From: Cetorhinus maximus | Lineage: Eukaryota | Reading direction: 5' to 3' | DNA length: 64,000 bases | NCBI RefSeq assembly: GCF_964194155.1 | Contig: NC_135890.1 | Span: 33,976,001 to 34,040,000 of the forward strand | In this document: piece by piece, positions 37,100 through 39,780 of the stretch | How the letters are laid out: each line of letters begins with the position of its first letter | How positions within the stretch are numbered: position 1 is the stretch's first letter | Position numbers and translations under genes: made by a program | Notes under the pieces: generated by a model | What the model was told of the DNA's origin: nothing | Databases searched by the model: none | The model's input: only the letters and a program-made list of their open reading frames with translations

Positions 37100-39780
37100 T
37101 TAAAGTTGTTTTGGAGTTATAGGATTAAATAAATTGGAGTAAATTGATCCTCTGACTTATTGGTAAAGATGGTCAAATCTTGCACTGAAACTAGAAGCTA
37201 ATGTAGCATAGACCTGGCCTGCAAATACGGGTCTCAACTTCTGTCAACTCATTCCTATTTGAGGTTATATATTTCTTACTCATTGCATTGTCCTGTTTGA
37301 ATTTTGAACGTATGGAGTTTGAGAAGGGCTTGTTACTTCAGTGGTGGATAAATTCTAAATCAAAATAATGTTATCCTCAGTAGCTTATATAAATGGAAAC
37401 ACGGGTTTCAACTTCATAAGTAACCCTCGAAACACCATCCCATACACCTCAGACATGTACCAATAAATGTAACAATTCGCTACATACATTTGAGACAGTA
37501 AGCTTCTGTCACAGGAACAAAAAGCAAGTTATTTTGACAATCTGCATATGTAAAGTTTTTTTTAAAGAGTCACTTGGATGGAAATCAATCATTGCTATAG
37601 TCACTGCACATAATCTCTCAGAAAATCACGGGAAAATAGTTATCAGGGTCCAAGTTTTAAAAGGCTTTTCTATTTGATTTTTTTTACTGTTGCGAAGCAG
37701 ACTTGGTCCTTTTTCAAGAAAACTAAATCTCCTGGAGAGAGCATGTTATTATCTACTGTTCATCTATTATGGCATCCACATAATTTGATATTTTCACAAT
37801 GATAAATTTGCAGTAATTATGTGTAAGTTGATTACAGTGCCTGTATTTATTTTAAACAGAGACTTTCAGTTGAACATCTCTGTAACGGAATACAATGCCA
37901 GTATTTACATGTGGGATCTTTCCTAGCGCAACAAGATTATTAAAGTTGACTTATTTGTACGAGGTTCTAGCTGTTCTCTCTTCAACTCTAACCAACAAAT
38001 TCCACAACTCATTACTTCTAGAACTTTCTACAAAGCTATCCTCTCCAATTTTATGTATTTTAGGGATATTCATTCACACACTTTCCGAACAACACTGAGG
38101 TTCTGAACCATTATCTGTATCTTAAACCATCAGTTATATTAATACAATGAGCAAAACAGTGAACAACTGCAGGTCCACTCCCTTTAGTGTTTTCAATACA
38201 TTTTGCACCCTATCGGCAACCGTGAAACCAATATCAAGTCCAGATGAGTTGATCCAAACTGACCATAAGGATTCCAAATGCTTCTAGATGTTTATACCCT
38301 GTGGTCGCAGTCAATCTGTGACACATTTAACAAAGTAGAACAGTAATAATCTTTCTGACTTGGTGAACACATAGAAGAATCAAATGTGACCCAGTGAGCT
38401 GTTATTTACTCGTTTCCTAATTTTGTTGCTCATCCATACACCAGTGTAAAATATGCTATTCTGCTCTTGGTTTCTTTCAGATTTAAAGCTATAGTTCCCT
38501 TCACACAATCAAGCATTCTTGGTCCAGCAATCCTAGAGAAGATGGCTATGGTATAGAATATTGTAGCTGTAAATATGATTGCAACTTATTAAACCCAACA
38601 TTCTCAGAACAGAAAATGGTTGGAGACCGAATGCGATCATTTCAGCAATTATGCTTATGTTTTTGGCACTTAGCGGAGAAATCCATACCTTACTGTTCTC
38701 AGAGGCTGCTGCTCTAAGTTGAGTTTCAAATGGCACCTCAAACAGGATGAAGGTGAAAATGAAACATCTGATATATCAACATTAGGCACAGGCACATGAT
38801 GAAGTGGTTGAAGATGTGGAAACAAATGTAGTCAGGAGAGCAGTTTGCTTTCCTGAATTGATTGTATAGTTACAGTGGGTGTTCATTATTTTGGTGAGGT
38901 CTGCAGAACATCAAGAAAAATATTTTCATAATTTTGATATTAGCAATAAGTGCAGCAAGTTGTTTTATTGTTGTGACAAATGAAAAGTTCAGCTGTTTGT
39001 TCCATAGATGACAACATAAAAATAGATTTATTTGTGGCCAAATGTTCTGAACCAGATGGTAAGAAGGACACAGAGCAGGTATCTGAGCGAGATGTTTCTC
39101 AGGTAAGATCTTTCCCTTGCTTAAGACCAGAAGCATGGTACTAATACGGGTGTCTCAAACATATACCAAGATTATCCCTTTTCTTTCCTCTGCTTATCAC
39201 GCAGTGACAATGCATACACACTGCCTTTGTACAGTCTAATAGGAACACAGTAAAATGACACCAAGCTCCGGAGGTTCGTGGCCTTGATATTTTTTGAGTA
39301 GTAGGTTCAAATGCCCAATGAAGTTGTAGAGATTGCAGGGTAAGACAAAAACGTTGGTGAAATAGATAGAGTTGGTGAACTTGCAGCATTGCCACAACCG
39401 TGTATAACTACAGATGGTTGAGACTGACTTAGATGCCTCATTAGGCAACTCATTCAAGATCTGACTATTTCTTATCGATGTTAAATGCATGATTGCAATG
39501 CGTGGAAATCACTTTGGTAATATTTGTAGTGGACATAATAAAATAATTTCGTACAGCTATTTCTCTTTTGGAACCTCCAGCGCTAATAGGTGGAATAGAA
39601 ATAACACGTGTATCAATAATAAAAAAATAGAGGGGGGTTTGTTGAGGTTGTAAATTAATGAATTATTTTGTTTGTCATCAATAGTTCTTTGATTTTCTTC
39701 CTTCTGATCTTCTTCATCACTGCCTTTACTATTAGTGAAATTTTACCAGTTACTTTGGCTGACCATGATATTTGCAGTTT
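37100..39780 (-). pseudogene. ZBED4: ZBED4 relic (domesticated hAT transposase with BED zinc fingers), disrupted by frameshifts and stops
   Basis: Colinear minus-strand fragments in shifting frames: GSKREIAVRNYF..TKVISTHC (~39460-39590); SGAWCHFTVFLLDCTKAVCMHCHCVISRGKKRDNLGICLRH (39141-39290); CSADLTKIMNTHCNYTINSGK (~38830-38915); [77 protein letters not shown] (TAG at 38284-38286). Position and strand match ZBED4 between ALG12 and BRD1. Ends are approximate. Confidence 0.88.

Follow-up and report, generated by a model that had tools for sequence, protein, structure and literature searches.

Does the interval between ALG12 and BRD1 in the shark Cetorhinus maximus still hold ZBED4, a gene derived from a hAT transposase, and if so, in which state and since when? 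ZBED4 is described as present in bony vertebrates in the available text of PMC7786948. A ZBED phylogeny places its origin in the jawed-vertebrate ancestor and finds it next to ALG12 in all orthologues of Table 1; the main text, as far as available, mentions no shark (PMC3606216). Our literature search, with most subscription papers outside its scope, returned no paper on ZBED4 in cartilaginous fish and, judged by title, none on ZBED4 in sharks; the papers joining ZBED4, ALG12 and BRD1 were, by the same measure, confined to human genetics. A role of ZBED4 in cones and Müller glia has been proposed. We analysed a stretch of 64,000 nucleotides of contig NC_135890.1, referred to as the window, and all positions below are counted from its first letter.

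A disabled ZBED4 copy between ALG12 and BRD1

The original prediction had placed a decayed ZBED4 between ALG12 and BRD1. Both flanking genes were found, and their order and orientation match those of mammals (BRD1-ZBED4-ALG12-CRELD2):

21741..36500, plus strand: ALG12-type mannosyltransferase gene (Glyco_transf_22), with a penultimate exon of 76 nt at 34734-34809
36254..36500, plus strand: final ALG12 exon, coding part (preceded by the acceptor AG at 36252-36253; stop codon TAA at 36498-36500)
56928..58298, plus strand: first coding exon of BRD1 (EPL1 plus PHD-knuckle-PHD)

The first gene, whose PDB match is labelled only Mannosyltransferase, is taken to be ALG12 by its sequence and exon structure. 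In the BRD1 exon, 43 of 50 residues of the N-terminal peptide are identical to the BRD1 peptide of 5gk9; the top matches of its PHD region are BRPF1 constructs, which are longer. Minus-strand EGF-like exons to the left of ALG12 are consistent with CRELD2.

A ZBED4 profile built from 25 orthologues was aligned to the DNA with frameshifts allowed. It matched the minus strand from 39581 to 38073 against residues 283-868 of the coelacanth protein, with a score of 612 compared with 37 ± 3 (maximum 44) in 30 shuffles, and its score stayed at or below 49 in those window blocks, 34 of 36, that are clear of the relic. Over 483 aligned codons, the relic is 42% identical to coelacanth ZBED4. All five peptides quoted in the original prediction lie on this strand in ZBED4 order. 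The predicted extent, 37100-39780, proved too wide: ZBED4 similarity is restricted to 39581-38073, and 37100-38070 is not ZBED4. BED fingers and a hAT core are both present as claimed, but there are only three fingers, and the C-terminal third of the protein is gone:

38073..39581, minus strand: ZBED4 relic with three BED fingers and the first part of the hAT catalytic core (coelacanth residues 283-868)
39346..39581, minus strand: finger A and the linker after it (stop codon TAG at 39467 and a frameshift near 39454; Trp replaced by Arg, the first Cys by Ser and the last His by Gln)
39111..39299, minus strand: finger B (both Cys kept; TAG at 39143)
38784..38937, minus strand: finger C (first Cys replaced by Asn; two TGA stops, at 38928 and 38913, and a frameshift near 38826)
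38073..38673, minus strand: hAT core, residues 664-868 (55% identical to coelacanth; TAG at 38286-38284; seven frameshifts)
36501..38072, plus strand: single-copy non-coding DNA in place of the ZBED4 C-terminal third (no ZBED4 similarity; short old repeat fragment at about 37240-37390)

Twelve frameshifts, whose places are approximate, and six stop codons (39467, 39143, 39101, 38928, 38913 and 38286) amount to 18 disabling lesions over 1,509 nt, and the longest lesion-free stretch measures 173 nt. Breakage by several frameshifts had been anticipated, as had the TAG at 38284-38286, which is in frame with ZBED4 residue 795. The predicted loss of a zinc-ligand Cys in two fingers was borne out for fingers A and C, where the codon of the first such Cys reads TCC (39506-39504) and AAC (38883-38881), respectively. 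Finger B is the only one detected by Pfam, with BED above the cut-off in one of three frames. In the hAT core, the Asp at residue 819 is kept. We conclude that the relic is a truncated pseudogene, which at the DNA level makes no protein.

In bony vertebrates, ZBED4 (Latimeria P0112, Ascaphus P0001, Paramormyrops P0002) likewise lies beside ALG12 and consists of tandem BED fingers followed by a hAT core, and its alignment with the relic contains no intron-sized gap. In contrast to these genes, the relic has three fingers instead of four, a linker between fingers A and B that is about 80 residues shorter, an undetected N-terminus of 115 residues, a deletion of residues 869-1188 that removes the C-terminal hAT dimerisation region, and the disabling lesions described above.

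The deleted residues 869-1188 gave no signal in 38075-36600 (score 28, reached by 84 of 100 shuffles) and no match elsewhere in the 64-kb window (best score 49) or in the genome assembly. Between coelacanth and teleost, residues 869-1035 share 77% identity, and under simulated decay at equal or higher levels they always scored at least 90, as opposed to the observed best of 49. Thus, this part was deleted and not merely decayed. Residues 1-115 were undetected in the window. Two candidates for the C-terminal part, 38070-37799 (score 42) and 41670-41599 (tblastn E about 5), were at chance level. An acidic stretch near 39766-39670 resembles the ZBED4 N-terminus, but its score is no better than background.

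An intact gene might appear broken through errors in the assembly. The relic stretch is present in 20 of 24 listed sequencing runs from three organisms, and contigs from four runs were compared. The own-species read contig (X4), possibly from the same sample as the assembly, covers 35655-40224 (4,570 nt) with two substitutions and no gaps; it reproduces the relic and restores no open reading frame. For organism B, the contig (X15) matches 36252-38909, differing by 81 substitutions and 19 gap letters, and 38912-39529 is also covered, at low depth. The organism C contig (X17) spans 36252-40261 and differs by 144 substitutions and 54 gap letters. In organism B run X12, of which about 48% was examined, no long contig spans the relic. 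The X15 and X17 contigs align colinearly with this genome and thus have the C-terminal deletion in common with it. This large deletion is shared by three species, in a comparison whose scope was the deletion rather than each frameshift. Furthermore, a third of the otherwise invariant core residues are changed. A single base within the relic, 38524, differs between assembly and read contig, and the probability that sequencing or assembly errors account for the lesions is negligible. At 38524, the own-species contig agrees with organisms B and C against the assembly; this position and 35906 are heterozygous sites or assembly errors and affect no frame.

Orthology, copy number and the catalytic site

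One frame of the relic (39335-38031, stops as X) was searched against a protein database of 1.84 billion representatives. The search returned nine matches, of which the two best were ZBED4 of a frog and of a mormyrid. Eight of the nine were looked up: three are ZBED4 or ZBED4-like by name, one is unnamed, and the remaining four are hypothetical proteins of bony vertebrates that consist of ZBED4 pieces. All nine matches are ZBED4-like, and none is a transposase of another family. A tree of the core (residues 664-868, 18 sequences), with four ZBED1-like proteins of the same genome as outgroups, united the relic with ZBED4 at 100/100, and the relic core is 46-55% identical to ZBED4s compared with 17-23% to the four ZBED1-like proteins. 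The position of the relic at the base of the ZBED4 group received a support of 0/31, so the tree cannot place it outside the bony vertebrates. Among the best 120 of 373 matches in a further search (down to 66% identity), there was no named chondrichthyan; a shark orthologue would probably rank lower, so that this result does not speak for absence. A word search with the correct frame gave no match even though coelacanth ZBED4 has exact words in common with the query, and it is equally uninformative on whether sharks lack ZBED4. The ESM Atlas resolved taxa to phylum only.

The 801-nt relic core has one match in the genome assembly, and is therefore single-copy. A comparison of coelacanth ZBED4 with the genome, a stricter first look at an assembly that may be incomplete, yielded eight places: three in the relic, four intact single-finger ORFs (23-28% identity) and one decayed fragment. 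A search for BED fingers in the genome gave five places, none of them ZBED4, with 150 of 301 candidates scored. No intact ZBED4 was found elsewhere in the assembly, where the best other matches reach 21-29% identity.

Mobile hAT elements are multi-copy and carry terminal inverted repeats (TIRs) and an 8-bp target site duplication (TSD), none of which was seen for the relic. An independent hAT transposon, related to the ZBED4 ancestor, could have inserted in sharks and decayed there. Sharks do contain other hAT-derived sequences, and TIRs and the TSD would not have survived so much decay in any case. However, the relic is single-copy, occupies the same interval as ZBED4, shows no terminal repeats beside it, matches ZBED4 in an ordered and finger-specific manner, shares a D-to-G change with it, and has no transposase of another family among its matches. 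An independent insertion is thereby largely refuted, and we consider it scarcely credible. The best matches are ZBED4 orthologues and not multi-copy hAT transposons. Homology, single copy and lesions confirmed by reads uphold the prediction of a decayed unitary pseudogene, and we conclude that the relic is a unitary pseudogene orthologous to ZBED4.

Unitary pseudogenes, of which primate GULO is an example, resemble the relic in single copy, synteny, disablement and the absence of a functional paralogue replacing the gene. The relic differs from the usual cases in its descent from a transposon-derived gene, its deep decay and its presumed antisense position in the 3′ UTR of a neighbour.

The four intact single-BED ORFs of this genome (669-698 codons) are L007 (C7), L008 (C6), L009 (C30) and L010 (C33). 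Like the relic, these ZBED1-like genes (see also P0135 and P0137) combine a BED finger with a hAT core; unlike it, they have a single finger, an intact frame and an acidic residue at the column of the first catalytic Asp, and they lie on other contigs. L008, with Glu in this column, belongs to a 90% cluster of 12 members that spans sharks and rays, and thus represents a conserved domesticated gene. Of seven candidate proteins of this genome that were looked up, two ZBED1-like ones are identical to entries labelled Cetorhinus maximus and fall into clusters of sharks and rays. At L005 (C33:18591011-18591136), about 2.4 kb upstream of the L010 ORF, a second BED finger lies within an open frame of 115 codons and may be another exon or a duplicate. 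L013 (C6:121040696-121041100), a decayed hAT core fragment with stops and 25-29% identity to ZBED4, is another old relic.

By sequence, the Hermes transposase (hAT; PDB 8edg, 4d1q, 2bw3) has the same catalytic fold as the relic. Unlike the relic, Hermes is active and has D180. This residue aligns with G743 of coelacanth ZBED4 (E about 2e-9 for Hermes versus coelacanth ZBED4), and the relic codon in this column is GGT (Gly) at 38442-38440. The column holds Gly in all ten sarcopterygian ZBED4s as in the relic, Ser in three of three teleosts, and Asp or Glu in all four ZBED1-like outgroups. Judged from this alignment, the pattern suggests that catalytic activity had already been lost in the ZBED4 ancestor; one mutation suffices to turn GAT into GGT, and the Gly of the relic could be convergent. 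The available text of PMC3606216 describes the DDE triad as conserved across ZBEDs, which conflicts with the present Hermes alignment at D180.

Synteny, the core tree and the common D-to-G change together support an origin of ZBED4 before the split of sharks and bony vertebrates, in keeping with the predicted domestication before the chondrichthyan/osteichthyan split. An origin in the jawed-vertebrate ancestor is thus likely. The syntenic relic is direct evidence for this older date, and for this lineage at least, it recasts the absence of the gene in sharks as a loss. An otherwise strongly conserved gene was dispensable here; a connection with the loss of cone opsins in sharks would be conjecture.

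Age of the loss and ancestry of the BED fingers

Of 80 core residues that do not vary among 121 bony orthologues, 54 are kept in the relic; a neutral model translates this into ~0.18 substitutions per site. At sarcopterygian-invariant sites the relic keeps 70 of 106, compared with 95 of 106 in a teleost, giving ~0.14 after correction. The six stops correspond to ~0.07 substitutions per site (Poisson range 2.2-13.1 stops, up to 0.18), an estimate that errs on the low side, since stops are avoided by the aligner. Organisms B and C differ from this genome by 3.1-3.6%, which makes 0.016-0.018 for each lineage. At 0.07-0.18 substitutions per site, the decay of the relic is 4-11 times this per-lineage value, so that, if rates were constant, the loss is about 4-11 times older than those splits. 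We conclude that the loss of ZBED4 is ancient and long preceded the split from organisms B and C, this being a relative age and no absolute date. The shark mutation rate is low, 7e-10 per base per generation according to the available text of PMC10587355, and a loss hundreds of millions of years ago is plausible at such slow rates. Of the predicted later loss in this lineage, the loss itself stands; it long predates this species, and a functional phase after the split is our inference.

The explanation that best accounts for the whole, and which we regard as probable, is that the relic is a dead ZBED4 orthologue, domesticated before the split and later lost on the shark side. In the last ancestor that sharks share with bony vertebrates, a hAT transposase gene would have lain between ALG12 and BRD1; devoid of the first catalytic Asp and with multiplied BED fingers, it would already have been a host DNA-binding protein. 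Bony vertebrates would have retained it as ZBED4. On the shark side, constraint would have been lost long ago, followed by deletion of the C-terminal third including the dimerisation region, after which stops and frameshifts would have accumulated at the neutral rate. Slow shark mutation would have left the relic readable, and it would now be part of the ALG12 3′ UTR, read on the opposite strand.

Since the loss may date back hundreds of millions of years, a scenario in which the orthologue was never functional in sharks stays viable. An immobile hAT copy might have been fixed in the jawed-vertebrate ancestor and domesticated only on the bony stem, never coming under selection in cartilaginous fishes. 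The decay of 0.07-0.18 per site, combined with the low shark mutation rate (PMC10587355, available text), could reach back to the split; the fingers of the relic look ancestral; and zbed4 is given as present in bony vertebrates in what is available of PMC7786948. This scenario is nevertheless at odds with the three tandem fingers and the lost catalytic Asp being already in place, and with the stop count of six, which points to the low end of the decay range. The accessible part of PMC3606216, moreover, places BED multiplication after domestication, active transposons having a single BED. We consider domestication confined to the bony stem unlikely and prefer a domesticated gene that was later lost.

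The fingers themselves may tell more about this gene. Finger A shows 34% similarity to bony finger I and 35% to finger II, and of 21 diagnostic sites, six match I, six match II and nine match neither. The I- and II-type sites are interleaved, with II-like ones at the start, which is not as expected of a simple I-to-II fusion. In the finger tree, finger A falls outside I plus II (66/95). Finger B holds the position of III and is closest in sequence to IV (48%), while finger C is of the finger IV type (50%). Possibly, then, finger A is the pre-duplication state of I/II, for which long-branch attraction would look identical, and the three-finger count may be ancestral or a deletion. In this respect, the relic offers a possible snapshot of BED-finger duplication. 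In a tentative reading, to which we give somewhat less than an even chance, the relic would represent an ancestral ZBED4 with three fingers, older than the finger I/II duplication on the bony-vertebrate stem. The gene would then have disappeared close to the origin of elasmobranchs or chondrichthyans, several hundred million years back, and would exist in no living shark or ray. If true, the relic would be an unusually old single-copy pseudogene that is yet readable, and slow-clock shark genomes would keep a record of gene losses early in vertebrate history and of intermediates in transposase domestication.

The relic and the ALG12 3′ UTR

The contigs of organisms B and C cease to match this genome at 36252, where the acceptor AG of the final ALG12 exon lies, and that of organism C continues beyond this point with 77 unmatched letters. 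The ALG12 penultimate exon of 76 nt ends in AG, and the preceding exon and the intron both end in CAG. The 77 letters can be accounted for by the penultimate exon, of which 74 bases remain, and three common bases. Most simply, the contig is therefore a spliced ALG12 transcript that crosses the entire relic in antisense, as deduced from the lengths of unstranded contigs. The contigs of organisms B and C are taken as RNA on indirect grounds, no run holding the stretch being recorded as RNA. In these RNA-type contigs, from two species and two studies, the depth over the relic is 80 and 46, as opposed to 2-9 in the preceding intron. The resulting feature is:

36501..40261, plus strand: putative long ALG12 3′ UTR, crossing the relic in antisense (extending to 40261 in organism C and as far as 38909 or beyond in organism B)

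For organism C, the antisense position of the relic within the ALG12 3′ UTR follows from contig geometry; it is likely for organism B and presumed by extension for C. maximus. The contig of organism B has 2,367 extra letters, more than the ALG12 coding exons explain. A minus-strand splice beyond 38909 as the source of this unmatched part is disfavoured by the exact 77-nt ALG12 fit of organism C. The depth of the organism B contig drops from 80 to 4.5 at its end, 38909, near a splice-acceptor-like pyrimidine tract ending in CAG on the minus strand (38901-38920).

Transcription at such depth, together with the 77-base fit to spliced ALG12, might indicate a second role of the relic as RNA, either as a 3′ UTR kept for regulation or as a left-over sense-antisense pair. 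Transcription alone is not function, however, and the substitution pattern speaks against such a role. Among the listed sites of organism B, presuming that the listing is complete up to 37402, the 247 ALG12 coding bases show no difference and the 902 bases after them 30 (3.3%); subtraction leaves 51 for the final 1,507, which include the relic core (3.4%). In this count, the relic-core stretch has the same rate as the adjoining non-coding DNA (Fisher p = 1), a rate exceeding that of ALG12 coding sequence (p = 0.001). We regard a role as RNA as very unlikely.

Further elements were observed in the window. A cluster of very high-copy repeats at 40120-41330, with contig depth up to 1e5-1e7, lies directly upstream of the relic, and a similar element is found near 63570-63860. 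Broken pieces of a Ty3/gypsy-type retroelement (Pfam matches to integrase C-terminal and RT) occur at 46792-47929, between the relic and BRD1. A CpG island at 52001-53000 (GC 0.62, CpG o/e 0.98), upstream of BRD1, could be a former promoter common with ZBED4.
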